NCBI GenBank assembly: GCA_009844405.1
Contig: VYBO01000003.1
Coordinates: forward strand, 11,214-75,213
Length of the DNA: 64,000 nt
From: Acidimicrobiaceae bacterium
GTDB lineage: Bacteria; Actinomycetota; Acidimicrobiia; Acidimicrobiales; Aldehydirespiratoraceae
Direction of reading: 5' to 3'
Both the position numbers and the translations under genes were made by a program. Position 1 is the stretch's first letter. Each line of letters opens with the position of its first letter. The notes beneath the pieces are model-generated. The model was not told the DNA's origin, did no database searches, and saw only the letters and a list, made by a program, of their open reading frames with translations. Shown here piece after piece: positions 40,191-61,564 of this stretch.

Positions 40191-40679
40191 CTAAAGCGTC
40201 CAGGTGGAGAGGACCAGCGCCCTGTCGCGCCAGGCCTGGATGTTGGCGTCCAGGACGTCGAGCGGGTTGAACGGGGTCACGCCCTCCATGACGTCGTCCT
40301 CGCGCATGCCGTACAGCGCGCCCATGGCGAAGCGGCAGCAGTAGACGGTGGCGCCCTCGTTGATGAGGGTCTGGAGCTGGCGGTTGTAACCGAGGTTGCC
40401 GGGGAAGCCCTCCTGGCCCACCGCCGGGTAGCCCCGGGCAGCGTTGGCCATGAGCACGGCCGGGCCGTACAGCACGAACGTGAGCTTGAAGCCCTTGCGC
40501 TGCAGGCGGGTGGCGGTGAGCATGTTCACCAGGCCGACCGAGCCCTCGAAGGGCACCGTGTGCATGAACACGTACGCCTGGTCGCCCTCCTCGGCCTTGT
40601 AGTCGGGGAAGACCTTCTCCTCGATGTTGTGCATCACGTCGCCTTCCTGGGGCGGCGGGATGGTCACTGTCTTGGGCAT
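40191..40679 (-). CDS. MSMEG_0572/Sll0783-like protein (Nit1C 'hypothetical 1'; DsrE-like size and pattern)
   Basis: 162 aa. Placed by cluster context and by my recollection of the family. Needs an HMM check. Confidence 0.5.
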   Translation of the reverse strand: MPKTVTIPPPQEGDVMHNIEEKVFPDYKAEEGDQAYVFMHTVPFEGSVGLVNMLTATRLQRKGFKLTFVLYGPAVLMANAARGYPAVGQEGFPGNLGYNRQLQTLINEGATVYCCRFAMGALYGMREDDVMEGVTPFNPLDVLDANIQAWRDRALVLSTWTL

Positions 40680-40721
40680 GGTTGCCTCCTTGTTGTTGTG
40701 TGGGTAGTTGCTTGTCGGATC

Positions 40722-40982
40722 TCAGATCGCCGGTCCCTGGGGCCGGCCGGAGCGGATGGGCCAGGCCCTTCGATGGGATCCCGGCAGCGCCTGAATGACG
40801 CGCCGCCGCAAGCCCCAGGGCAGCAGGCGGTAGGCCGGTGTGAACACATGCATCCAGAAGTGCTCACGCAGACCGCTGGCCTTCTCCGGCATCGGTGCGC
40901 CGTAGCGGGAGCCGACACGCCGCTGGGCGTCGATGGCCAGGTAGTGCTCCGAGTTGGAGCGGAGCCACTGAGCGAACCCCAT
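40722..40982 (-). CDS. MSMEG_0570-like small protein (Nit1C 'hypothetical 2')
   Basis: 86 aa, lying between the flavoprotein and the Sll0783-like gene. Size and position fit. Not verified. Confidence 0.4.
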   Translation of the reverse strand: MGFAQWLRSNSEHYLAIDAQRRVGSRYGAPMPEKASGLREHFWMHVFTPAYRLLPWGLRRRVIQALPGSHRRAWPIRSGRPQGPAI

Positions 40983-40995
40983 GACGGCGCCGCCC

Positions 40996-42318
40996 CTACA
41001 GCCCGGCCAGCAGGTTCTGGGCGGCCACCGAGATCGGCTCGTTGAGAGCGCCGATGGCAGGCGAGTAGACGTTCTCCATGGTGGCCAGCTCCTCGACGGT
41101 GAGGCCGACCCGGACAGCCATGGCCAGGAAGTCGGCCCGCTCCTTGATCCCCTCGCCGCCGATCATCTGGGCCCCGATGAGCCGCAGCGATCCGGGCTCG
41201 GCCAGCAGCTTGACGGTGATGGGCCTGACGCCCGGGTAGTAGCGGGCCCGGGTGATGCCCTGGGCCTTGCCCACGACATGCTGTATGCCCAGCGCGGTGG
41301 CCAGCGTCTCCCCGAAGGACACCCCGCCGATCATCCACTCGCCGGCCAGCAGCCCCCACGGCACTAAGACCGGCCGGTAGTGGCGGGTCCCGCCGGCGGC
41401 ATTGGTTCCCGCCGTCTTGCCCTGCGCGTAGGCGTGGGAGCCGGTCAGACCCTGGATCGGGATGTCGGAGACCCCGTGGGGGATCTCGGTGCAGTCCCCC
41501 GCGGCGTAGATGTTCGGATCGGAGGTCTGCATCCTCGAGTCGACGATCAGGCCGCCGGTCGAGCCCAGATCGAGGCCGGCCGCGGCGGCCAGAGGATTGT
41601 TGGGCACCTTGTGGGTGCCGACGATGACGATGTCGGCCTCTATACGGCCCTGCTGCGTCTCGACGCTGCTCACGGTCCCGTCGCCCCGGAACGCGGTGAC
41701 CCGGTTGCCCCACTGCATGTCGACGCCGGCGTCCTCCCAGGCCTGGCGCACCGGCTCCACGATGTCGGGGTCGAGCACGTCGGCCATGGGCCAGGGGGCG
41801 GGATCGACGACGGTGCACTCGATCCCCCGGTGGCACAGGGCCGCGACCATCTCCATCGCCACGAGGCCGGCGTCCACGACCACCGCCGATTGGCAGGAGT
41901 CGAGGCGCTTGTCCCACTCCATGGCCTCGCGGATGTACTTGACCTCGTAGATGCCGTCGAGATCGGCTCCGGGGACGTCGACTGCGGCGTAGTTCCATCC
42001 CGATGCGATCACCAGGCGGTCGTAGGTCGCCTCGCCCTCGCCCGCGACAACGAGGGTGCGCGACTTCGGGTTGATGGACTCCACGGTGGTCTCGTAGTGG
42101 ACGTCGATGCCGGTGGCTACGTACTGCTCCTTGGTGGCCAGGAAGAGCCGGTCGAACGAGTCGATCTCCTTGCCGTGGACGTAGGGGATGCCGCACGGGC
42201 TGTAGGCCACGTCGGTGTCCGCGGTGTAGACCACGACGTCGGCGTCCGGATCGACGCCCTTGGCCGCGCCGGCAGCACCGATGCCTGCCGCGCCCCCGCC
42301 GATTACCGCTATCCGCAT
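40996..42318 (-). CDS. FAD-dependent pyridine nucleotide-disulfide oxidoreductase (NADH oxidase/CoA-disulfide reductase-like)
   Basis: MRIAVIGGGAAGIGAAGAA, a redox-Cys segment VAYSPCGIPYV, and a second dinucleotide fold. Confidence 0.85.
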   Translation of the reverse strand: MRIAVIGGGAAGIGAAGAAKGVDPDADVVVYTADTDVAYSPCGIPYVHGKEIDSFDRLFLATKEQYVATGIDVHYETTVESINPKSRTLVVAGEGEATYDRLVIASGWNYAAVDVPGADLDGIYEVKYIREAMEWDKRLDSCQSAVVVDAGLVAMEMVAALCHRGIECTVVDPAPWPMADVLDPDIVEPVRQAWEDAGVDMQWGNRVTAFRGDGTVSSVETQQGRIEADIVIVGTHKVPNNPLAAAAGLDLGSTGGLIVDSRMQTSDPNIYAAGDCTEIPHGVSDIPIQGLTGSHAYAQGKTAGTNAAGGTRHYRPVLVPWGLLAGEWMIGGVSFGETLATALGIQHVVGKAQGITRARYYPGVRPITVKLLAEPGSLRLIGAQMIGGEGIKERADFLAMAVRVGLTVEELATMENVYSPAIGALNEPISVAAQNLLAGL

Positions 42319-42443: not shown

Positions 42444-42839
42444 TCAGACGGCCCGCACCGACATCTCCGGAGAGTTGCGGATGGTGTTGGACACGTAGCA
42501 GACGCGTGCCGCCGCCTCCAGCAGCCGGTCCTTGACGGCGTCGTCGCAGCCGACATCGACCCGTATCTCGAGGGCCGAGAAACCGGGGCCGTCGTAGGTG
42601 CCGGTCACTTCCACCCCCAGATGGGACAGCTCGATGCCCCGCTTGCCGGCCGCGTGGGCCACCGCGAGGGTTAAGCACGACGACAGCGCGGCCAGCAGGA
42701 GCTCGGTGGGCTGGGGACCCCGGTTGGTCCCTCCATACCTCTCGGGCTCGTCCACGGGAATGGTGAAATCGCCCGAGGACACGTCGCAGCGGTAGGCGCC
42801 CAGCCACCGGGCCGAGACGGTAAGGGTCGGGGTACTCAC
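42444..42839 (-). CDS. OsmC/Ohr-family protein
   Basis: GTNRGPQPTELLLAALSSCLTLAV and AARVCYVSNTI motifs. Start set at GTG 42839 (the track gives 42878). Confidence 0.8.
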   Translation of the reverse strand: MSTPTLTVSARWLGAYRCDVSSGDFTIPVDEPERYGGTNRGPQPTELLLAALSSCLTLAVAHAAGKRGIELSHLGVEVTGTYDGPGFSALEIRVDVGCDDAVKDRLLEAAARVCYVSNTIRNSPEMSVRAV

Positions 42840-42923
42840 GGCGGGCCGTCCTTCAAGCTGCCGGCAGCGAGCCGTCAACTATACGACACCGCTGGATCAC
42901 AAGCGAAAAGGCCGTGGTCTAGG

Positions 42924-43577
42924 ATGCACGCCCGTGATGGAGCCATGACCGGCCAGGCGGCGGCCAGCGCTGGGGGCGCGGACGGGCGGCCCAACCACGT
43001 GAGCGGCGAGACGCTGAGCGCGGTCGTGAACTCGATCGGGCCCAAGATCCGCCACCTGCGCAAGCAGTGGAACCTGTCGCTGCAGCAGCTCGCCGACCGC
43101 TCCGACGTGTCGACCGCGGCCATTCACAAGGTGGAGCAGGGCACCATGGTGCCCACCATCACAACCCTGCTGAAGCTGGCCGCGGCCCTCGAGCAGCCGG
43201 TGGCGTACTTCGTGGACGAGGAGCTGGAGTCGCCGCCCTACGTGGTCTTCACCCCTGCGTCCGAGCGCCGATCGATCTACACCCCCCATGAGGGCCTCAC
43301 CCTGGAGGGAATCTCCGGTCCCTACGGCCAGTACTTCGTGGCCACCGCCATCGCCGAGGTGGCGCCAGGCGCCGGCAGCGGCCAGTCCCCGCTCCACCAC
43401 GCGGGCGAGGAGCTGATCCACATGCTGTCGGGGCGACTCGACGTGGACGTCTCCGGTCAGACCTTCCAGCTGCGCAAGGGCGACTCGATCCACTTCCGGA
43501 CCGACCACGAGCACCGCTGGCGCAACCCCGCCAAGCACCCGGCCCGCGCCGTGTGGACGGCGCTCAGGCCCTCCTGA
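42924..43577 (+). CDS. XRE-family HTH regulator with a C-terminal cupin domain
   Basis: HTH IRHLRKQWNLSLQQLADRSDVSTAAIHKVEQG and cupin HHAGEELIHMLSGRLDVDVSGQTFQLRKGDSIHF. Confidence 0.85.
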   Translation: MHARDGAMTGQAAASAGGADGRPNHVSGETLSAVVNSIGPKIRHLRKQWNLSLQQLADRSDVSTAAIHKVEQGTMVPTITTLLKLAAALEQPVAYFVDEELESPPYVVFTPASERRSIYTPHEGLTLEGISGPYGQYFVATAIAEVAPGAGSGQSPLHHAGEELIHMLSGRLDVDVSGQTFQLRKGDSIHFRTDHEHRWRNPAKHPARAVWTALRPS

Positions 43578-43768
43578 ATCCACGGGCCCGCGACCGAACC
43601 GGGTTGAGATCAGCAAGCAACGCTCCAGCACCAGCCCTACAAATGCAATACCCCGGACGCATGCCACAGGGGCATTGGCGACACCGGGGGAATTGGATTG
43701 CGGTCGATTATACGCCTAAGAGGGAGCGCGGATTGATCGGCGGCCAATCGCGTCGCAGGGTGGTCATA

Positions 43769-43812
43769 CCCGCTCCTGTTCGCTTCGCTCACGGGCCGCT
43801 CGGGCCACGGCC
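43769..43812. repeat. 44-nt intergenic repeat, copy B
   Basis: CCCGCTCCTGTTCGCTTCGCTCACGGGCCGCTCGGGCCACGGCC; 43/44 identical to 23653..23696. Confidence 0.85.
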
Positions 43813-43884
43813 CCGCCCCGTATGGGCCGGGTCGCCCGCCTATCCGCGGGGCCTCTAAGGGTCTCCCGTCGCCGGCCCACCTAA

Positions 43885-43938
43885 ATCCAAAGCTCGCAAA
43901 AAATCCTAAGCTCGCAAAAGATCTAAAGCTCGCAAAAG
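43885..43938. repeat. 18-bp x3 tandem repeat (ATCCAAAGCTCGCAAAAA / ATCCTAAGCTCGCAAAAG / ATCTAAAGCTCGCAAAAG)
   Basis: Read directly. Line 43881..43940 is 25/60 G+C. A partial inverted core (GCGAGCA) lies at 43957..43963. Confidence 0.9.
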
Positions 43939-44055
43939 GGTATGCTGGGTTACCCCGCGAGCAAGGTCGGGATACGGGTGACAACACGACTAGCAAATCC
44001 CTCAGGCCGTAAGCGCCACTTCATGGCGACGGCCCAGGCTCAGCGGGCGTAGCGC

Positions 44056-45180
44056 ATGGCGAACGGCAATCCGTTCAAGCCGTCCTTCGGGGCCTCGCCA
44101 CCTGTGCTCGCAGGGCGCACGGGAGTCCTAGATGCACTCGGGGAGGCCTTGGACAGCGGTACGGGCCACCCCGATTTCACTTCGCTGCTCGTCGGAGTGC
44201 GCGGAGCGGGCAAGACGGCGACGCTCAACGCCGTGCAGGAGTATGCGCGAAACCGCGGTTGGCTGGTGATCGCGGAGACCGCCCACGGGGATCTGTGCAA
44301 CAGACTGGTCGCGGCGGTCTTGGAGCTGTCGGGTGGTGGCCACGATCGGGGCGGGCGGCCGCGGTTGGCGGGAATCAGTGCACTCGGCGTGGGCGTCGAG
44401 TTCACCCGAGCCAGCCCGGTGGGCGTCGGGGCGACCGAAGTCCGGCTGCGGTCCGTTCTGACGGACCTGGGCTCGCTCCTCACGTCCGAGCGTATAGGGC
44501 TGCTCATCACGCTCGACGAACTACAGGGCGGCGAACCGCCGGAGTTGCGCGAGTTTGCCACAACACTGCAGCACGTCACACGGCGTGAGTCGCTGCCGAT
44601 CGCGTTCGTGGGCGCGGGCCTTCCCAGCATCGACGACACCGTGCTCCGGGATTCAGCGATCACGTTCCTGCAGCGCTGCTCCCGCCATGAGATCGCTGAG
44701 TTGTCCGACGCGGCCACTGCGACGGCCTTCGCTGAGCCGATAGCCGCGCATGGGGGACGCATCAGCGACGACGCGCTGCGCCGCGCCGTTGAAACCAGCA
44801 ATGGATACCCCTTCATGGTGCAGCTCATCGGCTTTCACTCCTGGCGGGCCGCATCCTCCGACCCGCCGAACCTGCAGATCGCAGACGTGTCGTCGGGCAT
44901 AGCCGAGGCTGAGCGCCGGCTCCCCCACCTCGTGCTGGCGCCCATGTGGCGATCGATGTCGGGAGTGGACCGCCGGTTCGCCCTAGCCATGGCCCAAGAC
45001 GACGGCGAGACCTCGACCGCTGATCTCTCAAAGCGCCTCGGTCGCAGTTCAAGCTATATCAGCACCTACCGGTCGCGGCTCATCCGCGCCGGCTTCATCC
45101 GCAGCACCGGCCACGGCCGCGTCGAGTTCGCCCATCAAGCCACCCGCGCCTGGCTGCGATCCCCCGACCGGACCCCCTGA
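44056..45180 (+). CDS. AAA+ ATPase with a C-terminal winged-helix DNA-binding domain (Arch_ATPase / Orc-Cdc6-like layout)
   Basis: 374 aa. Walker A GVRGAGKT, Walker B LLITLDELQ, C-terminal TSTADLSKRLGRSSSYISTYRSRLIRAGFIRSTGHGRVEF. Confidence 0.7.
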   Translation: MANGNPFKPSFGASPPVLAGRTGVLDALGEALDSGTGHPDFTSLLVGVRGAGKTATLNAVQEYARNRGWLVIAETAHGDLCNRLVAAVLELSGGGHDRGGRPRLAGISALGVGVEFTRASPVGVGATEVRLRSVLTDLGSLLTSERIGLLITLDELQGGEPPELREFATTLQHVTRRESLPIAFVGAGLPSIDDTVLRDSAITFLQRCSRHEIAELSDAATATAFAEPIAAHGGRISDDALRRAVETSNGYPFMVQLIGFHSWRAASSDPPNLQIADVSSGIAEAERRLPHLVLAPMWRSMSGVDRRFALAMAQDDGETSTADLSKRLGRSSSYISTYRSRLIRAGFIRSTGHGRVEFAHQATRAWLRSPDRTP

Positions 45181-45207: not shown

Positions 45208-46608
45208 TCAGGCGAGGCGGCGGTCCAGGTCGAGGAGGGCCTGCCGGAAGCACTCGATGGGGGCGTGGGCCACCCCGGCGCCGACCTGGCCCGAGCCGTC
45301 GGAGACGTGGACGATCCCGGTGTTCACCGCAGGGGTTGTCGAGCTCTCGACCACCCGCCGGACGTCGACCCCCAGCGGGGTGCCGGCGTTGTCGAGAACG
45401 GGCAGCCGGAGACGGGTGCTGGTCCCGGCACAGATACGGCTCATGGCTGCGGTGACCGCGGCCGCGTCGGCCATCCTGCCCCCGAGGAAGCCGGCCACCG
45501 CGGGCGAGTTGGCCGCGGCCGCTCCACCGAGGCCCACCAACTCCAGCACGGCACTGTCGCCGATGTCGGGGGCGCTCGTGTCCGGTCCCTGACTGGGGTA
45601 GTACAGGGCGTTCTGCACCGGCGGCGACGCCGCGATGTGCCACGTACCGGAGTCGCCGGCCAGACGGATGCCGTAGGTGGTGCCGTTGCGGGCCATGGAG
45701 GTGACGATGCTCGATTCGGGCACCTGGCCGGCCCACTCGGTGAGGGAGCGAGCGCCCGCCATGGCGATGTTGAGGAACATCAGATGGTTGGTGCTCAGGA
45801 AGTCGGCCACCTCGCCGATCCTGTCCGTGCCGGCGCGGACCAGGTGCGGCAGCAGGTCGCGCAGCAGGAGGTTGGTGGTGGCCTGGACCCGCATGTGGAC
45901 GTCGTCGCCCATGGTGATGCCCTGGGCGGCCAGAGAGAAGACGTCGATTGGACCGACCCGGTCGAGGGCCCGGGCCAGCGTCGGAGCCAGCGCGTCGCGC
46001 AGGAATCTGAGGCGCTCGATGGCTTCATCGGAGTCCACCCCGAACCAGGGGACGGCCCCCGAGCCCTGGTTGAGGCTGGAATAGGCCGTGGCGCCTCCGG
46101 CGTCGACGGAGACCACGTACACCGGAGCGCAGGGCCCGATGGCACTGGCCATGGGCACCACCGTGGAGTGCTCGTTGGCCGCCCCGAGCCGGATCTCGCC
46201 GGCGTTCAACATGCGGTCGGCGGCGTCGCGGTCCGGGGCCCACTCCTCGGCCACGACCGCGGCGCGGACCGAGCGCCGGAGCGGGTCGCACATCTCGGGC
46301 CAGCCGATGGGCGGGCCGCAGTGAAGGATCGTGCCCGACTCGAGACCCTCGATGACCGCGCCGGCCGTCTCGACGCCGAGCAGCATCGGCACACCCCGGT
46401 CGAGGCGGTCGATCACCTCAGCGTTGGCCGCGTCGATCCGGTCGGCGGCGGGGCCCAGCAGCCTGGCAAGGGCGGCCACCGCCTCCGTGTCGCCGCCGGC
46501 CGGGATGCGCCAGTCCACCCCCACCGCGGGCGCGCCCTGATCGCGTACGGCCGTCTCGAACCGCTCCAGCCCGATGTTGACGACCGCGACCCGTTCGGGC
46601 AGCCCCAC
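45208..46608 (-). CDS. DUF1116 protein (YlbE/AllG-like)
   Basis: 466 aa. Segments ILHCGPPIGWPEMCDPLRRS and GDDVHMRVQATTNLL match my recollection of DUF1116. Confidence 0.65.
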   Translation of the reverse strand: MGLPERVAVVNIGLERFETAVRDQGAPAVGVDWRIPAGGDTEAVAALARLLGPAADRIDAANAEVIDRLDRGVPMLLGVETAGAVIEGLESGTILHCGPPIGWPEMCDPLRRSVRAAVVAEEWAPDRDAADRMLNAGEIRLGAANEHSTVVPMASAIGPCAPVYVVSVDAGGATAYSSLNQGSGAVPWFGVDSDEAIERLRFLRDALAPTLARALDRVGPIDVFSLAAQGITMGDDVHMRVQATTNLLLRDLLPHLVRAGTDRIGEVADFLSTNHLMFLNIAMAGARSLTEWAGQVPESSIVTSMARNGTTYGIRLAGDSGTWHIAASPPVQNALYYPSQGPDTSAPDIGDSAVLELVGLGGAAAANSPAVAGFLGGRMADAAAVTAAMSRICAGTSTRLRLPVLDNAGTPLGVDVRRVVESSTTPAVNTGIVHVSDGSGQVGAGVAHAPIECFRQALLDLDRRLA

Positions 46609-48398: not shown

Positions 48399-48426
48399 GG
48401 GGATGCGCCGTGTCCGCCGGTAGACC

Positions 48427-48795
48427 CTAATGGGCGTGGTCGTGGTGGTGATGGTCGTGGCCGCCGTGGTCGTGGTCGTGGCCAGGCGGGCGGGCTGCGT
48501 AAGCCGCGGCCAACTCGTCCACCTCGGATCCCGCCACGATCTCCCGTTCGGCGACGATCGACTCGAGGGCCTCCTGCCAGCGCTCGTAGTACCGGTACTC
48601 CCCCACCGGGTCCGACTCCCAGCGCTGCACGGCCGCGATCAGGTGGTCGCGGAAGTCGTCCCAGGTGAAGTGGCCGCCCTCCACCAGAGCCATGGCCATC
48701 GCGAAGCTGCGCCCCTGCCAGGGCGCGTCGAACACCAGCTCGCCGTTGAGCCGTGGCGGAGCGGCCGGGCCTTCGATGTCGAGAGTGAGAGCCAC
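48427..48795 (-). CDS. nitrile hydratase accessory (activator) protein with a His-rich tail
   Basis: 122 aa. Beta-subunit-like N-terminus FDAPWQGRSFAMAMAL and tail PPGHDHDHGGHDHHHHDHAH. Confidence 0.8.
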   Translation of the reverse strand: MALTLDIEGPAAPPRLNGELVFDAPWQGRSFAMAMALVEGGHFTWDDFRDHLIAAVQRWESDPVGEYRYYERWQEALESIVAEREIVAGSEVDELAAAYAARPPGHDHDHGGHDHHHHDHAH

Positions 48796-54317: not shown

Positions 54318-55093
54318 GCGGCAGCGAGGCGGGTTCGGAGTGTGTCGGATCGCAGCCCGCGCCGGAGGGCCTCCACTGCGAGAATCTCGTCGCGCGAGAT
54401 GTTCGCCAGGTTGACGTTCGCCCCCAGGTGGTTCACGAGCCACGCCTGCTGTTCGCGCCGGGGGGCCTCGTACACCACCGGCGCATCCGTTCCAGCGCCC
54501 TCGAGGGCGTCCACGAGGTCGGCCCTCACCAGCCCGTCGGCGGTGTAGAGACCCACGGTCCCGCTCTCCCGACCCTCCGCCACCAGCCACGAGGCGCCGC
54601 TGTCGATATCGCGCCGGGCCTCCTCGGCCCACTCGTGCGGGACGGCCTCATGGCGCGGATCCTTGCTTCCCACCTCGGCGAACACCTCGAAACCGCGGGC
54701 TCGGGCGCCGACGATCAGGTCCCGCTTGGCTGCGGCAGGCAGGCCGGTCGCGCCGCGCGACACCTCCACGCAGTCGAAGCCGAGGCCGCCCGCCCAGTCG
54801 AAGAAAGCCTCGGTCCGTCCCTGAAGCCAGGCCGCCTCCAACAGCGTGCCCCCGGGGCAGGCCTTGATGTCGTGGGCTTGGAGCAACTCGATCTTGGATG
54901 CGATCGCGGCGTCGACGTAGGCGGTGCCGAAACCGGACTTCCAGACGTCCACGAACGCACCGTGGGCCTCCACCAGCGCTTCGATGCCCGCCAGCGGCGT
55001 GCCGGGGTCGATGACGTGGGTGATGCCGAGCCGGCGCGGTTTGGTCGTCCGGGCGGCCGTTCGAAGGAACCGGGGAGACTCAGGAATGGGCAT
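54305..55093 (-). CDS. comA: (2R)-phospho-3-sulfolactate synthase (ComA family)
   Basis: 262 aa. KPRRLGITHVIDPG, VDVWKSGFGTAYV, CPGGTLLEAA, CVEVSRG, FAEVGSKD, VAEGRESGTVG, YEAPRREQQAWL, NVNLANI and LRRGLRSDTL are colinear with ComA. Confidence 0.85.
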   Translation of the reverse strand: MPIPESPRFLRTAARTTKPRRLGITHVIDPGTPLAGIEALVEAHGAFVDVWKSGFGTAYVDAAIASKIELLQAHDIKACPGGTLLEAAWLQGRTEAFFDWAGGLGFDCVEVSRGATGLPAAAKRDLIVGARARGFEVFAEVGSKDPRHEAVPHEWAEEARRDIDSGASWLVAEGRESGTVGLYTADGLVRADLVDALEGAGTDAPVVYEAPRREQQAWLVNHLGANVNLANISRDEILAVEALRRGLRSDTLRTRLAAACST

Positions 55094-55979
55094 CTGGACG
55101 ATCTCCTGACCTGCGCCGCACGTCGTTGGGCCGGGGGCCCATTCTACGTGTGCTTGCCCGAGCGAGTTCGGTGGCGGCCAGCGCCACGCCGGCCGCGAGG
55201 GCCCGGCCTGACGTGGCGCCCGCGCCGGCCAGTGACGCCGCCGCCCGGCGCATCCCGGACTGATCGCCCGACGCCGCCGCGTCGAGCAGGGTGTGGGCCG
55301 GCTGGACGCTCTGGCCGGCCGCGGCCCACCTGAGGAAGGCGCGGCTCAACCGGGTGGTGCGGGCGTTGCCGGCCAGTTCGGCGAGGGCGCGGCGCCGGCT
55401 CGGATCGATGGCGGCGACCAGCAGGATCCCCGCGAGCACGTCGTCGCCGCTCGGAGTCAAGCCGTCGCCGCGTCCCTGGAGCCGGCGGGACGCGGCCGTC
55501 GGGTCCCAGCGGCGCAGATCGTGGGTCACCGGCTCCCAGACAGCTGCCAGTTCGGGGGCAGCACACACAGCCAGGTCTCGCCATGCCGGCAGACCGGCGC
55601 AGAGACGCTCGGGCAGGTGCGGCGCCCAGGGCGCGCCCCCGTCGAGGCGGACTTGCAGCCGGCCCGCCCTGAGCACGTCGCCAGAGACGCTCACCCGGTC
55701 GTGCAGGGCCGGCGGTTCGGCCAGGTCCTCCACGACGAGGTGCAGCGGCCCGGGCCAGGATCGGGGACCCAGCACCGCGAACAACGTCTCGGAGGGGCCG
55801 GAGACATAGAAGCCGTCGCGGAACACCCCGGCCACCCGGCCGGCGAAACCCTCTGACGCCGCCTCCAGCGCGGCCTGGCCGACCGAGACCGCGGAGACGG
55901 GGCCGGCTGCTGCTGTACGGTGCGGCCGTGCCACCGCCGGACCAGCCGTCGCCGGAGGAGTTCCCACTGGAGCAGTCAT
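55080..55979 (-). CDS. DUF2877 protein (YlbF/AllH-like)
   Basis: GRGDGLTPSGDDVLAGILL motif. The true start is probably downstream of 55979, because the ORF's 5' end overlaps the divergent gene. Confidence 0.65.
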   Translation of the reverse strand: MTAPVGTPPATAGPAVARPHRTAAAGPVSAVSVGQAALEAASEGFAGRVAGVFRDGFYVSGPSETLFAVLGPRSWPGPLHLVVEDLAEPPALHDRVSVSGDVLRAGRLQVRLDGGAPWAPHLPERLCAGLPAWRDLAVCAAPELAAVWEPVTHDLRRWDPTAASRRLQGRGDGLTPSGDDVLAGILLVAAIDPSRRRALAELAGNARTTRLSRAFLRWAAAGQSVQPAHTLLDAAASGDQSGMRRAAASLAGAGATSGRALAAGVALAATELARASTRRMGPRPNDVRRRSGDRPDAHS

Positions 55980-56932
55980 CGCCCGGGCAGCCGTCGCTGG
56001 ACCGGCTGGTGACCGCGGTCCGCGACCATGCGGGGCTGCGGGCCAAGAGAGCTGTCGGGGCTGTGCGCCGGGTCGTCGGAGCCTCCGATCCGGTGACCGG
56101 GCCCGGCGACGACGGCGCCGTCGTGGAGACGGGCGGAGGAGCCTCGATCGTCGTGTGCGGGGAGGCGGTGCATCCGGCGTTCGTGGCCTCCGATCCCCGG
56201 GCCGCGGGGATCGCGGCCGTGCTCGCCAACGTCAACGACCTGGCGGCCATGGGCGCGGCGCCCAGGGCCATCGTCAACACGGTGGTGGCACCAGCTGCCG
56301 TGGCCGTCGAGGCGCTGCAGGGCATGGCCGAAGCGGCCGTCCTCTATGGCGTGCCCATCGTCGGCGGGCATATCAGCGAGCATCCGGGAGAACCGGCGCT
56401 GTCGGCATTCGCGGTGGGAGACGCCGACCGGGTCCTTTCGGTTAGCCGGGCCCGGGCCGGTCAGGACCTCGTATTCGCTTGCTGCCTCGAAGGCCGCATG
56501 CGGCCCGACTTCGCCTTCTTCACCACACTCCGGCATCAGGGCTCCCGCCTGGCCACCGACGTGCGCCTGCTGGCCGAGGTCGCTCGCATGGACCTGGCGC
56601 AGGCAGCCAAGGACGTCAGCATGGCCGGCTCGATCGGCTCGCTGGCGATGCTCCTCGAACCCGGAAGGCTCGGGGCGGAGATCGACCTGGACGGGTTGCC
56701 GGCACCGGCCGGGGTGAGCCTGGATCGCTGGCTCGTCTGCTTCCCGACGTACGCTTTCTGGCTCACCACCGACCGGCCCGGCCGGTGCGTGGACCTGTTC
56801 CGCTCGGCAGGACTGGCCGCCGCGGTGGTTGGTTCCATCAACGGCAGCGGCGTGCTGACCTTGCGAGCGGGCGGCGAGCGCCGCGAGGTGTTCGACCTCA
56901 AGAGCGAGCCCATCACCGGACTCTGGAGCTAG
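55928..56932 (+). CDS. AIR synthase-related protein (Sll0787-like, PurM fold)
   Basis: GPGDDGAVV, NVNDLAAMGAAPRAIVNTV and VPIVGGHIS. Start uncertain (GTG 55928 or later). Confidence 0.8.
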   Translation: MPPPDQPSPEEFPLEQSSPGQPSLDRLVTAVRDHAGLRAKRAVGAVRRVVGASDPVTGPGDDGAVVETGGGASIVVCGEAVHPAFVASDPRAAGIAAVLANVNDLAAMGAAPRAIVNTVVAPAAVAVEALQGMAEAAVLYGVPIVGGHISEHPGEPALSAFAVGDADRVLSVSRARAGQDLVFACCLEGRMRPDFAFFTTLRHQGSRLATDVRLLAEVARMDLAQAAKDVSMAGSIGSLAMLLEPGRLGAEIDLDGLPAPAGVSLDRWLVCFPTYAFWLTTDRPGRCVDLFRSAGLAAAVVGSINGSGVLTLRAGGERREVFDLKSEPITGLWS

Positions 56933-56945
56933 ATGCAGGGCCAAA

Positions 56946-57695
56946 TCAAGCTCCCGCGGCCTCGACGCGACTTCGCATGGCCCGCCGGTTGTCCTCGAAC
57001 AGCTCCGGGTCGGCCGTCTCCAGATCCTCGAAGGAACTCAGGTCGATGCCGGAGGTGCCGGCCGCTTCGGCACCCATGGCCGTGACCGTCACCACGTAGA
57101 CGGGGGTCATGGTCGACGGGTCGGGCTCGACCATGCTCACGACGGCCAGCCCGGTGGGCAGGTGCATCTCCATGCACTGGCAGGGGTCGGCGAGGCCGGA
57201 CGCCAGGTCACCCTGCTCGTGGATCACCACCCACGTCTCGCCCGCATCCCGGGCCGCCGTGATGCGTTCCCGGCGCTCACGCTCGGCCCGCTCGTTCAGC
57301 AGCTCGCGGCGGCGGATGGCGAAGCCGCATCCCGCGGTCGCCTCGATGAGGCCGTAGGCGACCGTCTCACCGGTGGCGCGGACCGCCGCGTCCAGCACCG
57401 CGGTCCGGTGCTCCCAGCGCTGGACCAGCTCCCCGAGATCGGAGACGTCGGCTAGAGCGTCGGCCACGGCCCGGACCAGCTTCACGGCCGACTGGTAGGC
57501 GTCCGGGTTGGTGGTGGCCGTCGGATACAGGCGGCGCTCGCTCTCGTTCCAGTGGGCGGCCAGCACGGCCGTGGGGTCTGCGTCCCCGTGCCCGGCCTGC
57601 ACCGCGATGGGGTCTGCGTCGCTCACACCTTCGGACATCGTGGTCGGCTCCTTGCCGGCTCCAGCCTCACCGCCGGTGGACCCGAGGCTTGGCAT
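56946..57695 (-). CDS. hypothetical protein
   Basis: Coding-like composition. An alternative ATG at 57638 has a strong AAGGAG 9 nt upstream. No family recognised. Confidence 0.5.
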   Translation of the reverse strand: MPSLGSTGGEAGAGKEPTTMSEGVSDADPIAVQAGHGDADPTAVLAAHWNESERRLYPTATTNPDAYQSAVKLVRAVADALADVSDLGELVQRWEHRTAVLDAAVRATGETVAYGLIEATAGCGFAIRRRELLNERAERERRERITAARDAGETWVVIHEQGDLASGLADPCQCMEMHLPTGLAVVSMVEPDPSTMTPVYVVTVTAMGAEAAGTSGIDLSSFEDLETADPELFEDNRRAMRSRVEAAGA

Positions 57696-57803: not shown

Positions 57804-58772
57804 TTGGCCGAGACCGCAATTCTCGCTCTCGGAGGCAATGCACTCATCCGCGAGGACCAGCGCGGCACCTTGGAGGAGCAATACGCCAACGCCCTCGCCA
57901 TGGCCCTGTCGGTGCGATCACTGATCCGGAAGGGATGGAACGTGGTGATCGTCCACGGCAATGGCCCCCAGGTCGGCAACCTGGCCATCCAGCACGAGGG
58001 CTCGACCGACCTCGTGCCCGCGCTGCCGTTGTTCACTCTGGGCGCCATGACGCAAGGGCAGTTGGGGAGCCTGATCTGCCTGGCGCTCAATGAAGTGTGC
58101 AGGCGCGAGATCACCGGCGCGGTGTCCGTCATCACGCATGTCGAGGTCGACCCCGGCGATCCTGCCCTGTCGCGCCCCACCAAGCCCATCGGCCCATTCT
58201 TCGACCGGACCGAGGCGGACGCGCTGACATCGGTGCGGGGGTGGACCATGGTCGAGGATTCGGGCCGGGGCTACCGGCGGGTGGTCCCGTCGCCGCGGCC
58301 GATGGCCCCCATCGAGGCTCCGGCCATATCGACGCTGGTCGACCTCGGATACATAGTCGTGGCCGGCGGGGGCGGCGGGATCCCGGTGTCGCGCTCGGCC
58401 GACGGCGCCTACCGGGGGGTGGACGCGGTCATCGACAAGGACTTCGCCGCGGAGAGGATCGCCGATTCCGTGGGTGCCCAGGCCCTGGTTATGGTGACCG
58501 GTGTGGACGCGGTGCGCCTCAACTTCGGCGCCTCCCAGGAGCAGACCGTCACCGAGATGACCGCTTCGGCTGCCCGGCGCCACCTGGCCGACGGCCAGTT
58601 CCCTCCTGGCAGTATGGGACCGAAGGTGGAGGCCGCCATCGAGTTCGTGGAAGCCGCGGGGCGGATCTCAGCCATAACCACGCCCGAGCTCGTGTACGCG
58701 ACCCTCGACGAGCCCGCCGGCGTGATCGAGGGTCCCCGGGGCACACGGATCGTGCCCGACCCGGCGCTGTGA
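57804..58772 (+). CDS. arcC: carbamate kinase
   Basis: TTG start preceded by GAGGAG. AILALGGNAL, VIVHGNGPQVG and VVAGGGGGIPV. Confidence 0.9.
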   Translation: MAETAILALGGNALIREDQRGTLEEQYANALAMALSVRSLIRKGWNVVIVHGNGPQVGNLAIQHEGSTDLVPALPLFTLGAMTQGQLGSLICLALNEVCRREITGAVSVITHVEVDPGDPALSRPTKPIGPFFDRTEADALTSVRGWTMVEDSGRGYRRVVPSPRPMAPIEAPAISTLVDLGYIVVAGGGGGIPVSRSADGAYRGVDAVIDKDFAAERIADSVGAQALVMVTGVDAVRLNFGASQEQTVTEMTASAARRHLADGQFPPGSMGPKVEAAIEFVEAAGRISAITTPELVYATLDEPAGVIEGPRGTRIVPDPAL

Positions 58773-58797
58773 CCGGGGCCTGCCATCCGTCGGCGGC

Positions 58798-60384
58798 GTG
58801 CCCGCGCCGATCGCCTGGCGGATCCGTGCCGTGACCGCCAGAGCCAAGATCGTCGCAGACTGCTACGTCGACAGCGTGCGGCTGCTCGAGGCGACCCGCG
58901 CCATGCTGGAGGCGCCCGGCGTCGACTGGGCTTGGGCGCTGATGGCCACGCCGGCCAACCTGGAGCTACTGCTCGACGAGGGAGTGACCGAGGGGCTCGA
59001 CGGTGCCTCGGCCAACGACCTCGTCCTCGCGATCAGGGGCGCCGACGAGCACTTGCCGGCGGCCCTGTCGAGAGCCTGGGCGGTGCTGTTCGAGGCGAGC
59101 GGGTCAACTGGCGCGGGCGCCCCGCCGGCAGCCACACGCCCCGGCGGCCTGGACGACGCTCTGGTCCTGGCACCGGAGGCCAACGTCGCCATCCTCTCCG
59201 TTCCGGGCCCCTACGCGGCCCTGGAGGCTCACAAGGCCCTGACCCGCGGCCTCGACGTGCTGCTGTTCAGTGACAACGTCCCCCTGGCCGACGAGATCGA
59301 CCTCAAGCGGCGGGCCTGCTCGCTGGGCCGGTTGGTGATGGGCCCGGGAGCGGGCACAGCCGCGCTGGCAGGCGTGGGGCTCGGCTTCTCCAACCGGGTG
59401 GCGCCTGGGCCGGTGGGAGTGGTCGCGGCCGCCGGCACGGGCGCCCAGGAGGCCATGACGCTGCTCGTCCGCTGGGGATCCGGTGTCACGCATGTGATCG
59501 GCGTGGGGGGCCGCGACCTGTCCGAGGACGTCGGCGGGCTCATGGCCGAAGCCGCGGTGGAGGCGTTCGACCGTCACGACGCAACGGAGCTGATCCTGCT
59601 GGTCTCCAAGCCGCCGGCTCCGGCTGTGGCCGAGCGTCTGCTGACCAAGGCTGCCAACAAGCCGCTTGTGGCCGCTCTGATCGGTCTGGACCGGCCCGTG
59701 GCGGCGGCGCCCGGAGCGGCAGTGTGCAACACGCTCGAGCAGGGCGTGGTGGAGTCCCTCGATCGCCTCGGCCACACCGGCGCCGACCCGATCGGCACGA
59801 TCGACGCCGAGACCGCCCGGCTCTCCACCTCCCTCGACCAGCGCCGGAGACGGATGGTGGGGCTGTTCAGCGGGGGCACCCTGGCCTACGAGGCGATGAC
59901 CATCGCCAGCCGCCACATCGGCCCGGTGTTCTCCAACACGCCGCTCGACCCTGAATGGGGGCTGCCCGGCCCACCCGGCGGCCACGTGTGCCTGGATCTG
60001 GGCGAGGAGGAGTTCACGGTGGGACGCCCCCACCCCATGATCGATCCCGAGGCAAGGCTCGAACGGCTGCAAGGCCAGGTCTCGGACCCGACGGTGGCGG
60101 CGGTGCTGCTCGACGTGGTCATCGGAGACGGCGCCCATCCGGACCCGGCCGCCATGCTCGCTCCGGCCGCGGCGGAGATAGTGGCGTCGGGGGCAGCCGT
60201 CGTGGCCTACGTGCTGGGTACCGACCGGGATCCCCAGGGCTTCGAGCGGCAGCGTTCGATAATGCGGGAAGCGGGCTGCGTCGTGGCTGAGACCAACGCC
60301 CGGGCCGCTCTGGCCGCGGCCGCGCTCGTGAACCGCGACCCCGCGCTCGTCCATCACGACCTGTCGACAAGCCTGACGGCGTGA
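58798..60384 (+). CDS. fdrA: FdrA/AllF-like protein (succinyl-CoA-synthetase-alpha-like fold)
   Basis: CYVDSVRLLE...ALMATPANLELL at the N-terminus and VPGPYAALEAHKALTRGLDVLLFSDNV in the CoA-ligase-like core. The real start may be GTG 58831. Confidence 0.8.
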   Translation: MPAPIAWRIRAVTARAKIVADCYVDSVRLLEATRAMLEAPGVDWAWALMATPANLELLLDEGVTEGLDGASANDLVLAIRGADEHLPAALSRAWAVLFEASGSTGAGAPPAATRPGGLDDALVLAPEANVAILSVPGPYAALEAHKALTRGLDVLLFSDNVPLADEIDLKRRACSLGRLVMGPGAGTAALAGVGLGFSNRVAPGPVGVVAAAGTGAQEAMTLLVRWGSGVTHVIGVGGRDLSEDVGGLMAEAAVEAFDRHDATELILLVSKPPAPAVAERLLTKAANKPLVAALIGLDRPVAAAPGAAVCNTLEQGVVESLDRLGHTGADPIGTIDAETARLSTSLDQRRRRMVGLFSGGTLAYEAMTIASRHIGPVFSNTPLDPEWGLPGPPGGHVCLDLGEEEFTVGRPHPMIDPEARLERLQGQVSDPTVAAVLLDVVIGDGAHPDPAAMLAPAAAEIVASGAAVVAYVLGTDRDPQGFERQRSIMREAGCVVAETNARAALAAAALVNRDPALVHHDLSTSLTA

Positions 60385-60408
60385 CCCTGACGGCGTGACC
60401 CTGACGGC
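60372..60408. repeat. 14-nt x2.6 tandem duplication of a GTGA stop/start junction
   Basis: CCTGACGGCGTGAC at 60372..60385 and 60386..60399, plus a partial copy at 60400..60408. Copy 1 holds the fdrA stop and copy 2 holds the glycosyltransferase GTG start. Confidence 0.9.
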
Positions 60409-61564
60409 CCGTGTCGCCATCGCCACCTACTCGGTGAGGCCCCGGGGCGGGGCGGTGCACAGCGTGGAGCTGGCCGAGGCCCTGGCCGCGGAGGGCGTCG
60501 ACGTGACGCTGGTCGCCTTGGGCGACCCGGCCGAGGGGTTCTTCCGGCCCACTTCAGTGCCGGTGCACATCGTCGAGGCGCCGACCCGGGCGGGCACCCT
60601 GACCGAGCGGGTGTTCTCCCACATCGATGCTCTCGAATCGGGCCTCGGCGCCGACCTCGCGGACCGTTTCGACATCGTGCACACCCAGGACTGCATCTCG
60701 GCCCGAGCCGCGGCCCGGGTCCGCGACCGGGGAGCCGGGTTCCGGCTGTTCCGCACGGTCCACCACATAGACGACTTCACCACCCCGGCGCTGATCGAGT
60801 GTCAGGACGCGGCCATCACCGAGCCGGACCGGGTGCTGGTGGTGAGCGAGCCGTGGCGGAGGCGCCTGCTCGACGACTACGGCGTGAAGGCGGCGGTGGT
60901 CACCAACGGCGTGCGCGTCGAGCGGTTCGCGGGTGCGGCGCAGTCGCCGGAGGAGCGCGACGCCCTGCGGTCGAGGATCGACGCCGGCGAACGCCACCTG
61001 TACCTGACGGTGGGAGGCGTCGAGCCCCGCAAGGGCTCGCGCTACCTGGTCGAGGCGCTGGGCCTGCTGAAGGCCATGCCGGGCCCGAGCCCGATGCTGG
61101 CCGTGGTGGGCGGCCACTCCTTCCAGGACTACCAGGCCTACCGGGACGAGGTGCTGGGGTCGCTGGACTCCCACGGCTTGCGCCTCGGAGACGACGTGGT
61201 GCTGGTGGGCACGGTGCCCGACACGGAGCTGCCCGGCTGGTTCGGCGCCGCCGACAGTTTCGTGTTCCCGTCGATCAGCGAGGGCTGGGGCCTGGTCGTG
61301 CTGGAGGCTCTGGCCGCCGGGCTGCCGGTGGTCGCCTCCGACATCGAGGTCTTCCGGGAGTTCCTGACCCATGATGTCGACGCGGTGCTGACCGGGGCGG
61401 CCGACCCCTCGTCGCTGGCGGCCGGCATGGCCCGGGTGCGAGACGACCCTGAGCTGGTCCGCCGGCTGGGATCCGCTGGAGCCGCTACGGCGGACCGCTA
61501 CTCGTGGACCAGCACCGCCCGACGCCACCTGGAGATCTACGCCGAGGTTTACGCCGGGGCCTGA
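60395..61564 (+). CDS. GT4-family glycosyltransferase (MSMEG_0565-like)
   Basis: 389 aa. N-terminus VAIATYSVRPRGGAVHSVELAEAL and EX7E region FPSISEGWGLVVLEALAAGLPVV. Confidence 0.85.
   Translation: MTLTARVAIATYSVRPRGGAVHSVELAEALAAEGVDVTLVALGDPAEGFFRPTSVPVHIVEAPTRAGTLTERVFSHIDALESGLGADLADRFDIVHTQDCISARAAARVRDRGAGFRLFRTVHHIDDFTTPALIECQDAAITEPDRVLVVSEPWRRRLLDDYGVKAAVVTNGVRVERFAGAAQSPEERDALRSRIDAGERHLYLTVGGVEPRKGSRYLVEALGLLKAMPGPSPMLAVVGGHSFQDYQAYRDEVLGSLDSHGLRLGDDVVLVGTVPDTELPGWFGAADSFVFPSISEGWGLVVLEALAAGLPVVASDIEVFREFLTHDVDAVLTGAADPSSLAAGMARVRDDPELVRRLGSAGAATADRYSWTSTARRHLEIYAEVYAGA

Follow-up and report, generated by a model that had tools for sequence, protein, structure and literature searches.

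INTRODUCTION

Nit1C gene clusters are widely distributed and have also been tied to nitrogen starvation and to polyhydroxybutyrate accumulation in cyanobacteria. To our knowledge, the nitrilase is the only Nit1C protein with a known reaction. The published nitB-H set encodes NitB, the nitrilase NitC, the radical SAM protein NitD, the GNAT protein NitE, the AIR-synthase-like NitF, NitG, and the oxidoreductase NitH, with NitB and NitG described as proteins of unknown function; it enables assimilation of cyanide and nitriles via NitC and is needed for growth on cyanide (PMC11049912). In Mycobacterium smegmatis, the canonical cluster is associated with GlnR-dependent peroxide resistance and NADPH/NADP balance (PMC6039565). 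Here, a 64,000-nucleotide (nt) stretch from an Acidimicrobiaceae bacterium (assembly GCA_009844405.1, contig VYBO01000003.1, positions 11,214 to 75,213; hereafter the window, numbered from its first nucleotide) was analyzed, in which a first-pass annotation had noted a split and expanded Nit1C-like gene set. We consider it probable, though well short of certain, that positions 40191-62500 (~22 kb, about two dozen genes) form one conserved multi-operon gene cluster and represent a second ("type 2") architecture of Nit1C, in which a nitrile hydratase takes the place of the nitrilase, an unrelated flavoprotein and an 86-aa protein that of MSMEG_0569 and MSMEG_0570, and sulfonate and AllFGH/carbamate kinase modules are added.

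Two other described systems resemble parts of this locus. In the coenzyme M (CoM) pathway of Xanthobacter autotrophicus Py2, XcbB joins sulfite to phosphoenolpyruvate (PEP), sulfoacrylate arises by XcbC-catalyzed loss of phosphate, XcbD attaches cysteine, XcbE liberates sulfoethanethioaldehyde, and the [2Fe-2S] protein XcbA reduces this aldehyde to CoM (PMC9457059). In Escherichia coli, the oxamic transcarbamylase AllFGH uses phosphate to cleave oxalurate into oxamate and carbamoyl phosphate, from which the carbamate kinase AllK then yields ATP (PMC11326118, PMC9843812).

RESULTS

Five Families in Common With Canonical Nit1C

Genes were picked by codon-position G+C, which was used because the G+C content of the window is ~70%, and were then identified with NCBIfam and Pfam models; curated NCBIfam cut-offs served as the pass/fail line for family assignment. 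All seven open reading frames (ORFs) previously listed as candidates for the non-nitrilase Nit1C members were recovered with the same limits. Four of them scored above the cut-off of the corresponding family: an Sll0783/MSMEG_0572-family protein of 162 aa (40191-40679, minus strand; TIGR04044, 201.5 bits against 109.85), an MSMEG_0568-family radical SAM enzyme (47256-48398, minus; TIGR04043, 360.8 against 303.7), an MSMEG_0567/Sll0786-family GNAT acetyltransferase (46696-47259, minus; TIGR04045, 88.1 against 68.45), and an MSMEG_0565-family GT4 glycosyltransferase (60395-61564, plus; TIGR04047, 379.4 against 259.85), from a family found in most canonical clusters; the next-best NCBIfam matches of this GT4 were MshA, BshA, and other GT4 families. 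The AIR-synthase-like protein (55928-56932, plus; start uncertain) best matched the sll0787 model TIGR04049 below its cut-off (245.3 against 321.3 bits) and scored 191.9 bits with the methanogenesis marker 2 model; it is a true homolog outside the curated boundary of the sll0787 family.

The remaining two candidates failed the family models. The small protein sm86 (86 aa; 40722-40982, minus) had no NCBIfam or Pfam match at E ≤ 1, the MSMEG_0570 model TIGR04042 included, and the MSMEG_0569 model TIGR04046 was not among the 25 best families of the flavoprotein (40996-42318, minus). Canonical-cluster control proteins scored in the same NCBIfam tool gave 134.9 bits with the MSMEG_0570 model and 647.9 bits with the MSMEG_0569 model. 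The claim that every non-nitrilase member has a candidate thus held for the five homologous families, while the small protein and the flavoprotein merely fill positions analogous to those of MSMEG_0570 and MSMEG_0569.

Kinship with the Nit1C/MSMEG_0565-0572 clusters was borne out by comparison with L086, a PGAP-annotated canonical example on a Rhizobium plasmid: identities to its members were 51% for the Sll0783-family protein, 40% for the radical SAM enzyme, 35% for the GNAT, 36% for the AIR-synthase-like protein, and 37% for the GT4. No BLAST similarity to window proteins was found for the L086 nitrilase, MSMEG_0570, MSMEG_0569, or Pnap_2097 proteins. In the 64 kb window, tblastn (E ≤ 1) detected neither a Nit6803/sll0784-type nitrilase (L086 query) nor an amidase. 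The nitrilase is, however, not merely absent: genes for a cobalt-type nitrile hydratase, not a nitrilase, lie upstream of the radical SAM gene.

Within these families, an ortholog alignment of the Sll0783-family protein showed an invariant Cys115 in a "Y.CRF" motif, and its profile gave only a weak match to PDB sequences (3mc3, DsrE/DsrF-like, E = 0.02) that spans the Cys region. In the alignment of the radical SAM enzyme, a variant Cx8Cx2C replaced the usual CxxxCxxC and a C-terminal CxxCxxC was invariant; its profile had no match among PDB sequences. Several of the distant representatives of the radical SAM family (P0370, P0372, P0373) have 500-545 aa and, by length, might be radical SAM-GNAT fusions. 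Self-carbamoylation of the AIR-synthase-like protein in the manner of HypE was ruled out, since it has no HypE-type C-terminal cysteine. Single-sequence AlphaFold2 models of the Sll0783-family protein (pLDDT 35) and of the conserved hypothetical protein unk219 (pLDDT 54) were of too low quality to support a fold search.

Gene Organization of the Cluster

The minus-strand run from 55979 to 45208 comprises 12 genes, as had been annotated, when a 106-codon ORF (50163-50483) is counted. It encodes, in order, AllH-like, ComA-like, XcbA-family, XcbD-like, and XcbC-like proteins, the 106-codon ORF, the beta subunit, alpha subunit, and accessory protein of the hydratase, the radical SAM enzyme, the GNAT, and an AllG-like protein. 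On the plus strand are the AIR-synthase-like gene and a separate operon for carbamate kinase, an FdrA/AllF-like protein, and the GT4, with the minus-strand unk219 gene between the two. In the left part, which is limited by an RNase HII gene (39362-40159), a PuuR-like helix-turn-helix (HTH)-cupin regulator gene is divergent from an OsmC-flavoprotein-sm86-Sll0783 operon. "About 15" additional genes had been estimated to interleave with the Nit1C members; 17 were counted, one doubtful ORF included.

Many adjacent genes overlap or lie 0-28 nt apart, which indicates co-transcription. The AllH, ComA, XcbA, and XcbD genes overlap, as do those for the radical SAM enzyme and the GNAT: modules are translationally coupled within one operon. 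The GNAT gene lies directly downstream of the radical SAM gene and overlaps its stop codon by 4 nt, which confirmed the canonical adjacent order. Starts of the AllH, AIR-synthase-like, XcbA, OsmC, and unk219 genes are approximate.

Recurrence of the Additional Genes Across Genomes

An alignment of the radical SAM enzyme was used to scan one genome per GTDB species, and the best 80 of more than 548 candidate stretches were kept. All window proteins were compared with these 80 loci by tblastn; a distant set (n = 32) was defined by a radical SAM protein <82% identical to that of the window and ≥18 kb of sequence. All of the best 80 loci carried the extra genes. Within ±10 kb, a horizon that makes these counts lower bounds, the distant loci contained carbamate kinase (30/32), GT4 (30/32), AIR-synthase-like (29/32), FdrA (29/32), AllG (28/32), ComA (27/32), XcbA (26/32), XcbD (25/32), and AllH (23/32) genes. 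The extra genes are therefore conserved neighbors in many genomes, and the locus withstands the refuting condition set in the first-pass annotation, that they be conserved neighbors in no other genome.

Hosts included Acidimicrobiia, Kribbella, Nocardioides, Streptomyces chiangmaiensis, Micromonosporaceae, Ilumatobacter, Paraburkholderia, and a Pseudomonadales metagenome-assembled genome (MAG). The nearest radical SAM protein among the best 80 (98% identity) came from an Acidimicrobiaceae MAG, and many others came from MAGs of Acidimicrobiales or of "Candidatus Aldehydirespirator," whose family has sponge-associated and free-living lineages (PMC11706023). The same gene content was found in at least eight orders. 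The window is a rearranged version of the commonest one, which reads CbtA, GT4-FdrA-carbamate kinase (minus), unk219-radical SAM-GNAT (plus), AIR-synthase-like (minus), AllG-AllH, regulator, and ComA-XcbA-XcbD-(XcbE)-XcbC.

In two lineages, Calvin-cycle genes that have no counterpart in the window were observed beside or inside type-2 clusters (L084:2398-5462; L087:7490-8557 and 14321-16968; L062:3605-6575; L059:3-1103). Those of Kribbella and Nocardioides encode phosphoribulokinase, FBPase, aldolase, GAPDH, transketolase, and ribulose-phosphate epimerase; RuBisCO large-subunit genes occur in two Acidimicrobiia MAGs, in L062 together with those for the small subunit and CbbX.

Relation to Nitrilase-Containing Clusters

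All 517 plasmid-borne radical SAM homologs retrieved were <60% identical to the window's enzyme; those listed shared 37-43% identity with it and were mostly annotated beside a Nit6803-family nitrilase. Radical SAM proteins of type-2 loci, by comparison, were 64-98% identical to it across phyla. In a library of representatives at 50% identity, one full-length representative was >50% identical (527 bits) and the next scored 338 bits. Type-1 and type-2 radical SAM proteins are thus two deep subfamilies. The notion of a canonical set split by interleaved genes was not upheld: the locus has a separate, conserved architecture, with its radical SAM enzyme in a 50%-identity cluster of its own.

Two mosaics were found. 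In Paraburkholderia elongata (L047), a Nit6803-type nitrilase (73% identity to that of the Rhizobium plasmid) adjoins Sll0783-sm86-flavoprotein-P450-OsmC genes in a type-2 cluster and occupies the slot beside the redox module that the hydratase fills elsewhere. Plasmid pSS37A-Re-1 of Methylocystis iwaonis (L089) combines a type-1 operon (nitrilase-radical SAM-GNAT-AIR-synthase-like-Pnap_2097) with type-2 accessory genes, namely those for the flavoprotein (68% identity), Sll0783 (78%), AllG (63%), FdrA (60%), and GT4 (60%), together with unk219, HTH-cupin, OsmC, and ComA-XcbA-XcbD-XcbE-XcbC genes. Both have these accessory genes together with a nitrilase, and in neither was a hydratase seen. 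Nitrilase and hydratase therefore appear interchangeable, and the mosaics indicate that types 1 and 2 are functionally tied. No description of the type-2 architecture was found among open-access papers and bioRxiv preprints; as weak evidence of novelty, this literature scope suggests that the architecture is possibly new.

A Predicted Cobalt-Type Nitrile Hydratase

The hydratase genes comprise those for a beta subunit of 219 aa (49403-50062, minus; TIGR03888, 211.3 bits against 152.2), an alpha subunit of the cobalt type (48806-49402, minus; TIGR01323, 303.9 bits against 249.85), and an accessory protein (48427-48795, minus; TIGR03889, 71.9 bits against 46) with a His-rich C-terminal tail, HDHDHGGHDHHHHDHAH. 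The 357-aa ORF originally proposed for the beta subunit (49403-50476) proved too long. The model matched its residues 139-356, orthologs have the shorter length, and the N-terminal 138 aa are not conserved, that DNA holding the 106-codon ORF in another frame. The alpha subunit carries the metal-site motif VCTLCSC, and cobalt-type hydratases scored above iron-type hydratases and thiocyanate hydrolase among solved structures. With all three proteins passing at equivalog level, a cobalt-type nitrile hydratase is predicted. Assignment as a thiocyanate hydrolase was rejected, as the score with that model was 199 against a cut-off of 291.45 and the solved-structure score was below those of the hydratases. 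Matches of NHLP leader domains raised the option that the alpha subunit is an NHLP-type RiPP precursor, which was rejected in view of its full length, equivalog pass, metal site, and beta and accessory partners.

At the right end of the cluster, a CbtA gene (61549-62355, minus; PF09490, 170.6 bits), convergent with the GT4 gene, is accompanied by a CbtB candidate (62288 to ~62500, minus; TIGR02459, E = 1.6e-4, below cut-off) that ends in ...HDGRHFAGVPCH; the two would form a putative cobalt transporter. CbtA adjoins the GT4 gene also in Kribbella, Ilumatobacter, and other loci.

When the hydratase alpha subunit was used as bait, a Kribbella protein 82% identical to that of the window was found. 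Kribbella-type loci L087 and L091 have ComA-XcbA-XcbD-XcbE-XcbC-108 aa-GAPDH genes, an HTH-cupin gene (minus), and hydratase beta-alpha-accessory-OsmC-flavoprotein-85 aa-Sll0783 genes, and two Acidimicrobiales chromosomes have the same order minus XcbE. This co-location makes the hydratase a conserved member of the cluster, and its interpretation as a lineage-specific addition was ruled out. An apparent mutual exclusion of hydratase and XcbE was an artefact of the ±10 kb view, as the Kribbella clusters have both. In 27 related loci, the hydratase is found with an AmiS/UreI-type amide/urea channel gene (~175 aa), which in the closest relatives, L004 (9278-9998) included, lies between the accessory protein and radical SAM genes.

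Homologs of Coenzyme M Biosynthesis Enzymes

The ComA/XcbB-like phosphosulfolactate synthase (54305-55093, minus) scored 232.2 bits with TIGR03849, against a cut-off of 280, and is 42% identical to the Xanthobacter enzyme; its orthologs were matched by Pfam ComA. The XcbA-family protein (DUF7714; 53400-54335, minus) passed the subfamily model NF052538 (299.3 bits against 150; PF24830, 271.9 bits) and shares 37% identity with Xanthobacter XcbA; a [2Fe-2S] reductase role is predicted for it. Its length is ~305-311 aa, the ORF being open upstream to 54632 and orthologs having 305 aa. An XcbD-like lyase of the adenylosuccinate-lyase type (52066-53415, minus; 41% identity to Xanthobacter XcbD) and an XcbC-like lyase of the aspartase/fumarase superfamily and argininosuccinate-lyase type (50542-52062, minus; 34-38% identity to the two Xanthobacter Py2 copies) had CoM_syn_XcbD (507.4 bits against 600) and CoM_syn_XcbC (434.3 bits against 575) as their best families, although both remained below these "exception" cut-offs; the argH model gave 264.6 bits with the latter. 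A word-indexed homolog search with XcbA retrieved close Acidimicrobiia relatives only, and tblastn against plasmids reached further.

A tblastn search with an XcbE-like query (E ≤ 1e-3) gave no match in the window, where the XcbD and XcbC genes are 3 nt apart. In 18 loci of the genome scan, two Kribbella-type loci, and the Methylocystis plasmid, a gene for an XcbE-like pyridoxal-phosphate enzyme lies between XcbD and XcbC and completes the five-gene set. XcbE was present in 15 of the 32 distant loci and absent from all 30 close relatives; its loss is specific to the window's lineage. Without XcbE, the module would stop at or divert from the cysteine adduct, make something else, or use a gene elsewhere in the genome.

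On the Xanthobacter plasmid pXAUT01 (L090, 24597-28243), xcbA-xcbB-xcbC-xcbD and a gene for a "CoA-binding domain protein" are followed by one for a pyridine-nucleotide-disulfide oxidoreductase with 30% identity to the window flavoprotein. The Xanthobacter CoM locus may thus have a partner reductase of its own.

AllFGH-Like Proteins, Carbamate Kinase, and unk219

The AllH-like (DUF2877) subunit (55080-55979, minus; PF11392, 70.7 bits) is encoded by the first gene of the long minus-strand operon and the AllG-like (DUF1116) subunit (45208-46608, minus; PF06545, 218 bits) by the last; both proteins passed these Pfam models. The AllH start is uncertain because its ORF overlaps the divergent AIR-synthase-like ORF by 52 nt. 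Carbamate kinase (57804-58772, plus) passed NF009007 (317.1 bits against 266) and scored 323.3 against 358.25 with TIGR00746. The FdrA/AllF-like protein (58798-60384, plus), which resembles the succinyl-CoA-synthetase alpha subunit, scored below the cut-off of NF004760 (386.7 bits against 433), and Pfam HMA_AllF_N and Ligase_CoA matched its orthologs. No allantoin/oxalurate (allB, allC, allD) or ureidoglycolate genes were annotated in the general Pfam/NCBIfam scans of the window, which did not include a search by name. Since no allantoin context was seen, the AllFGH-like carbamoyltransferase presumably handles another carbamoyl or ureido compound.

The conserved hypothetical protein unk219 (~219-230 aa; 56946-57638, minus) had no Pfam, NCBIfam, or PDB match, the last also when its profile was searched against PDB sequences. 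Its gene lies directly upstream of the radical SAM gene in most other genomes, was found in 20 of the 32 distant loci, and has orthologs in Kribbella, Paraburkholderia, and Methylocystis.

The Redox Module and Its Regulator

OsmC is the first gene of the OsmC-flavoprotein-sm86-Sll0783 operon, with intergenic gaps of 125, 13, and 42 nt. The OsmC/Ohr-family protein (42444-42878, minus; true start probably 42839) matched NF041052 and Ohr/OsmC models, all below cut-off, and Pfam OsmC matched its orthologs. The FAD/NAD(P)H-dependent pyridine-nucleotide-disulfide oxidoreductase had CoA-disulfide reductase (CoADR) as its best NCBIfam match (265 bits against 579). NADH oxidase, CoA-persulfide reductase, CoADR, and NADH peroxidase were its nearest solved structures, and Cys42 in "YSPCGIPY" was invariant in 34 of 34 orthologs. 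It therefore belongs to the single-cysteine CoADR/NADH-oxidase/peroxidase class and is not an MSMEG_0569 member. The sm86 gene is always located between the flavoprotein and Sll0783 genes; its orthologs in Paraburkholderia, Kribbella, and Methylocystis occupy this position as well and are 50-57% identical to it. Together, OsmC, the flavoprotein, and the Sll0783-family protein fit the peroxide-resistance and NADPH/NADP phenotype of M. smegmatis.

The regulator (42924-43577, plus; Pfam HTH_3 and Cupin_2; best NCBIfam match PuuR, below cut-off) is divergent from OsmC. In Kribbella and other Acidimicrobiia, the HTH-cupin regulator is divergent from a nitrile hydratase-OsmC operon. No operator-like inverted repeat was found when the OsmC-regulator intergenic region was searched. 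Paraburkholderia clusters have a cytochrome P450 gene between OsmC and the flavoprotein (L085:16177-17484, L047:6455-7690), to which nothing in the window corresponds.

Insertions and Flanking Genes

The AllG to HTH-cupin interval is an insertion hot spot. In the window it holds a variable insertion (43637-45180) with a doubtful ORF, orf119 (43637-43996, minus), and a gene with AAA_16 and winged-HTH Pfam domains (44056-45180, plus), which occurs in 3 of 30 close relatives and in 0 of 32 distant ones. Genes of an ApaLI restriction-modification pair occupy the interval in L003 (13385-15675), and L001 has nothing there. The 106-codon ORF (minus strand), between the XcbC-like and hydratase beta genes, has coding-like G+C at codon positions 1/2/3 (0.75/0.45/0.82), a hydrophobic N-terminal helix, repeated AAIAEQG motifs, and an AT-rich stretch ahead of it; the 430-nt insertion that carries it, upstream of the hydratase beta gene, is shared only with L008 (~70-75% identity). 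The only truly foreign insertions are the AAA_16/winged-HTH gene, the 106-codon ORF, and perhaps orf119. A search of 40000-62800 against Rfam gave no match at E ≤ 0.1.

Glyoxalase and HAD genes come after RNase HII in relative L001; their window equivalents are at 30344-31501. Relative to L001, an island of lower G+C content (31587-39000; 0.63-0.67 against ~0.70) is inserted in the window between these genes and RNase HII. An AAA_14/DUF4143 ATPase (31587-32855) and a 1414-aa protein (32852-37096) for which Pfam gave no match are encoded there, together with a BglII-like restriction endonuclease (37372-38079) and an HTH-containing MT-A70 methyltransferase (38091-38930). Directly past CbtAB, a plus-strand gene (62638-63999) that extends beyond the end of the window encodes a protein with ResIII/DEAD helicase and Mrr-type restriction endonuclease domains. 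Farther away, an 862-aa protein (10615-13203, plus) has S-layer-homology domains and RCC1/RLD beta-propeller repeats.

DISCUSSION

Co-recurrence, in at least eight orders, of ~20 families in Acidimicrobiia, several actinomycete families, and Pseudomonadota is to be expected from functional linkage and not from chance, and the overlaps within AllH-ComA-XcbA-XcbD and between the radical SAM and GNAT genes couple different modules at the level of translation. These observations largely refute a chance juxtaposition, on a variable island, of hydratase, sulfonate, and oxamate/carbamate operons with Nit1C remnants. Mobile or defense-type insertions (the BglII-like/MT-A70 pair, the AAA_16 gene, and the Mrr/ResIII gene) do flank and interrupt the locus, and gene order does vary between genomes, but we regard this explanation as highly improbable.

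Interpretation as a type-2 Nit1C cluster also has points against it. Every reaction step is inferred from family membership, and the AIR-synthase-like, ComA, XcbC, XcbD, and FdrA proteins are below curated cut-offs. No nitrile-forming enzyme was identified; XcbE, which Xanthobacter needs for CoM, is missing from the window and its close relatives, and the AmiS/UreI channel gene has been deleted from the window, with ~720 nt cleanly gone at 48399-48426 relative to L004. The peptide patterns of the scan were drawn from type-2 sequences, so that its counts give no frequency of type 1 relative to type 2, and the ±10 kb horizon, besides lowering presence counts, gave rise to the one false pattern, that of hydratase and XcbE.

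Under the type-2 interpretation, the following scheme is the likeliest. The sulfonate module would convert PEP and sulfite via phosphosulfolactate and sulfoacrylate to a thiol or amine adduct. The radical SAM, GNAT, AIR-synthase-like, and GT4 proteins may build or tailor a small molecule that passes through a nitrile. This nitrile would be converted to an amide by the hydratase, or to an acid and ammonia by the nitrilase of type 1 and some type-2 relatives; the alternation of the two enzymes suggests that the system inherently involves a nitrile. Together, carbamate kinase and the AllFGH-like enzyme might convert carbamoyl phosphate into a carbamoyl or ureido group of an intermediate and back, and OsmC, the flavoprotein, and the Sll0783-family protein could use NAD(P)H to drive redox reactions of thiols, persulfides, or peroxides. 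A tentative extension, to which we assign a low probability as a whole, is that type 2 makes and recycles an unrecognized sulfonate-bearing thiol outside methanogens and alkene degraders, either CoM or a glycosylated, acetylated sulfoacrylate-cysteine derivative, tied to a nitrile/carbamoyl intermediate. In this proposal, carbamate kinase, the AllFGH-like enzyme, and the AIR-synthase-like protein would add or take away a carbamoyl or cyano group, which the nitrilase or hydratase would resolve, and the CoADR-type flavoprotein, OsmC, and the DsrE-like Sll0783-family protein would use the thiol for peroxide/persulfide defense under nitrogen stress.

Two other functions were considered for the cluster. 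It might scavenge nitrogen catabolically, an imported external nitrile, cyanide adduct, N-cyano, or ureido compound being hydrated by the nitrile hydratase to an amide or ureide, whose carbamoyl group the AllFGH-like enzyme would phosphorolyze to carbamoyl phosphate for conversion by carbamate kinase to ATP, CO2, and NH3, with the other genes detoxifying or recycling by-products. Canonical Nit1C is required for growth on cyanide via its nitrilase (PMC11049912), and E. coli AllFGH with AllK is a catabolic, ATP-yielding system (PMC11326118, PMC9843812). The families are named for induction by nitrogen starvation (a point in the same direction), the AmiS/UreI-type channel gene adjoins the hydratase in the 27 loci mentioned above, the regulator resembles the catabolic repressor PuuR, and the absence of an amidase from the 64 kb makes the AllFGH-like enzyme a candidate user of the amide or ureide. 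Yet radical SAM, GT4, GNAT, and a PEP-plus-sulfite module are typical of biosynthesis and unlike simple nitrile catabolism, PGAP tags the core families "biosynthetic process," and the Kribbella clusters carry a SARP/BTAD-type regulator, a type typical of secondary metabolism. The window has, moreover, lost the channel gene, and no transporter for a nitrile or ureido substrate was found in the cluster. We consider scavenging possible but unlikely. More doubtful still is a genuine locus for CoM (2-mercaptoethanesulfonate) with a CoM-dependent pathway, in which the flavoprotein, OsmC, and Nit1C core would use or recycle CoM. The Xanthobacter CoM enzymes are the best family matches of ComA, XcbA, XcbD, and XcbC (34-42% identity), loci with the XcbE-like gene have the complete five-gene set, and pXAUT01 likewise has a pyridine-nucleotide-disulfide oxidoreductase near its xcb genes. 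This is opposed by the lack of XcbE in the window and all 30 close relatives and by the sub-threshold scores of XcbC, XcbD, and ComA. General Pfam scans of the window, made without a specific search, gave no alkene monooxygenase, epoxyalkane:CoM transferase, or 2-ketopropyl-CoM carboxylase, and we know of no report of CoM in these taxa outside alkene and vinyl-chloride degraders.

Type 2 makes the function of Nit1C more testable, as it substitutes a hydratase for the nitrilase and adds PEP-plus-sulfite and carbamoyl-phosphate modules as recurrent partners. Through it, the range of homologs of the recently elucidated bacterial CoM pathway also comes to include Actinomycetota, Paraburkholderia, and a plasmid of a methanotroph. 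Kribbella, Nocardioides soli, Paraburkholderia hospita, Streptomyces chiangmaiensis, and Methylocystis iwaonis are culturable hosts.

Among known systems, low-molecular-weight thiol systems such as that of mycothiol, with the GT4 MshA, the GNAT MshD, and mycothione reductase, offer an analogy. A GT4, a GNAT, a pyridine-nucleotide-disulfide reductase, an OsmC/Ohr-type peroxidase, and the peroxide phenotype of the canonical cluster would correspond, whereas homologs of MshB, MshC, and BshB/C are absent here and those systems lack equivalents of the radical SAM enzyme, hydratase, and carbamoyl module. Like the solved cobalt-type hydratases of Pseudonocardia thermophila and Bacillus/Geobacillus, the predicted hydratase passes the subunit cut-offs and has the VCTLCSC site, here with a putative cobalt transporter in the cluster; unlike theirs, its genes have neither an amidase partner nor an aldoxime dehydratase and are embedded in a radical SAM/sulfonate cluster. 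Of xcbABCDE in X. autotrophicus Py2 (PMC9457059), the XcbB/ComA, XcbA, XcbC, and XcbD homologs are present and mutually adjacent, with Xcb families as best matches, but XcbE is absent, there is no context of alkene or epoxide metabolism, and the genes stand amid radical SAM, hydratase, and AllFGH-like genes. With E. coli AllFGH and AllK (PMC11326118, PMC9843812) the locus has all three subunit families and a carbamate kinase in common, the latter adjacent to and co-oriented with FdrA, whereas its subunits are spread over three transcription units and FdrA is below the subfamily cut-off. From canonical Nit1C (Pseudomonas nitBCDEFGH, Synechocystis Sll0783-0787, and the M. smegmatis MSMEG_0565-0572 "gpr" cluster), it differs by a hydratase in place of the Nit6803-type nitrilase, the lack of Pnap_2097, ~12 additional conserved genes, an arrangement in several operons where the canonical set has one, and a CoADR/Nox-like flavoprotein with Cys42 where the canonical one is flavin-monooxygenase/ArsO-like. 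Both have the five homologous families, the radical SAM-GNAT order, a nitrile-hydrolysing enzyme within the set, and a small protein and a flavoprotein adjoining the Sll0783 gene.

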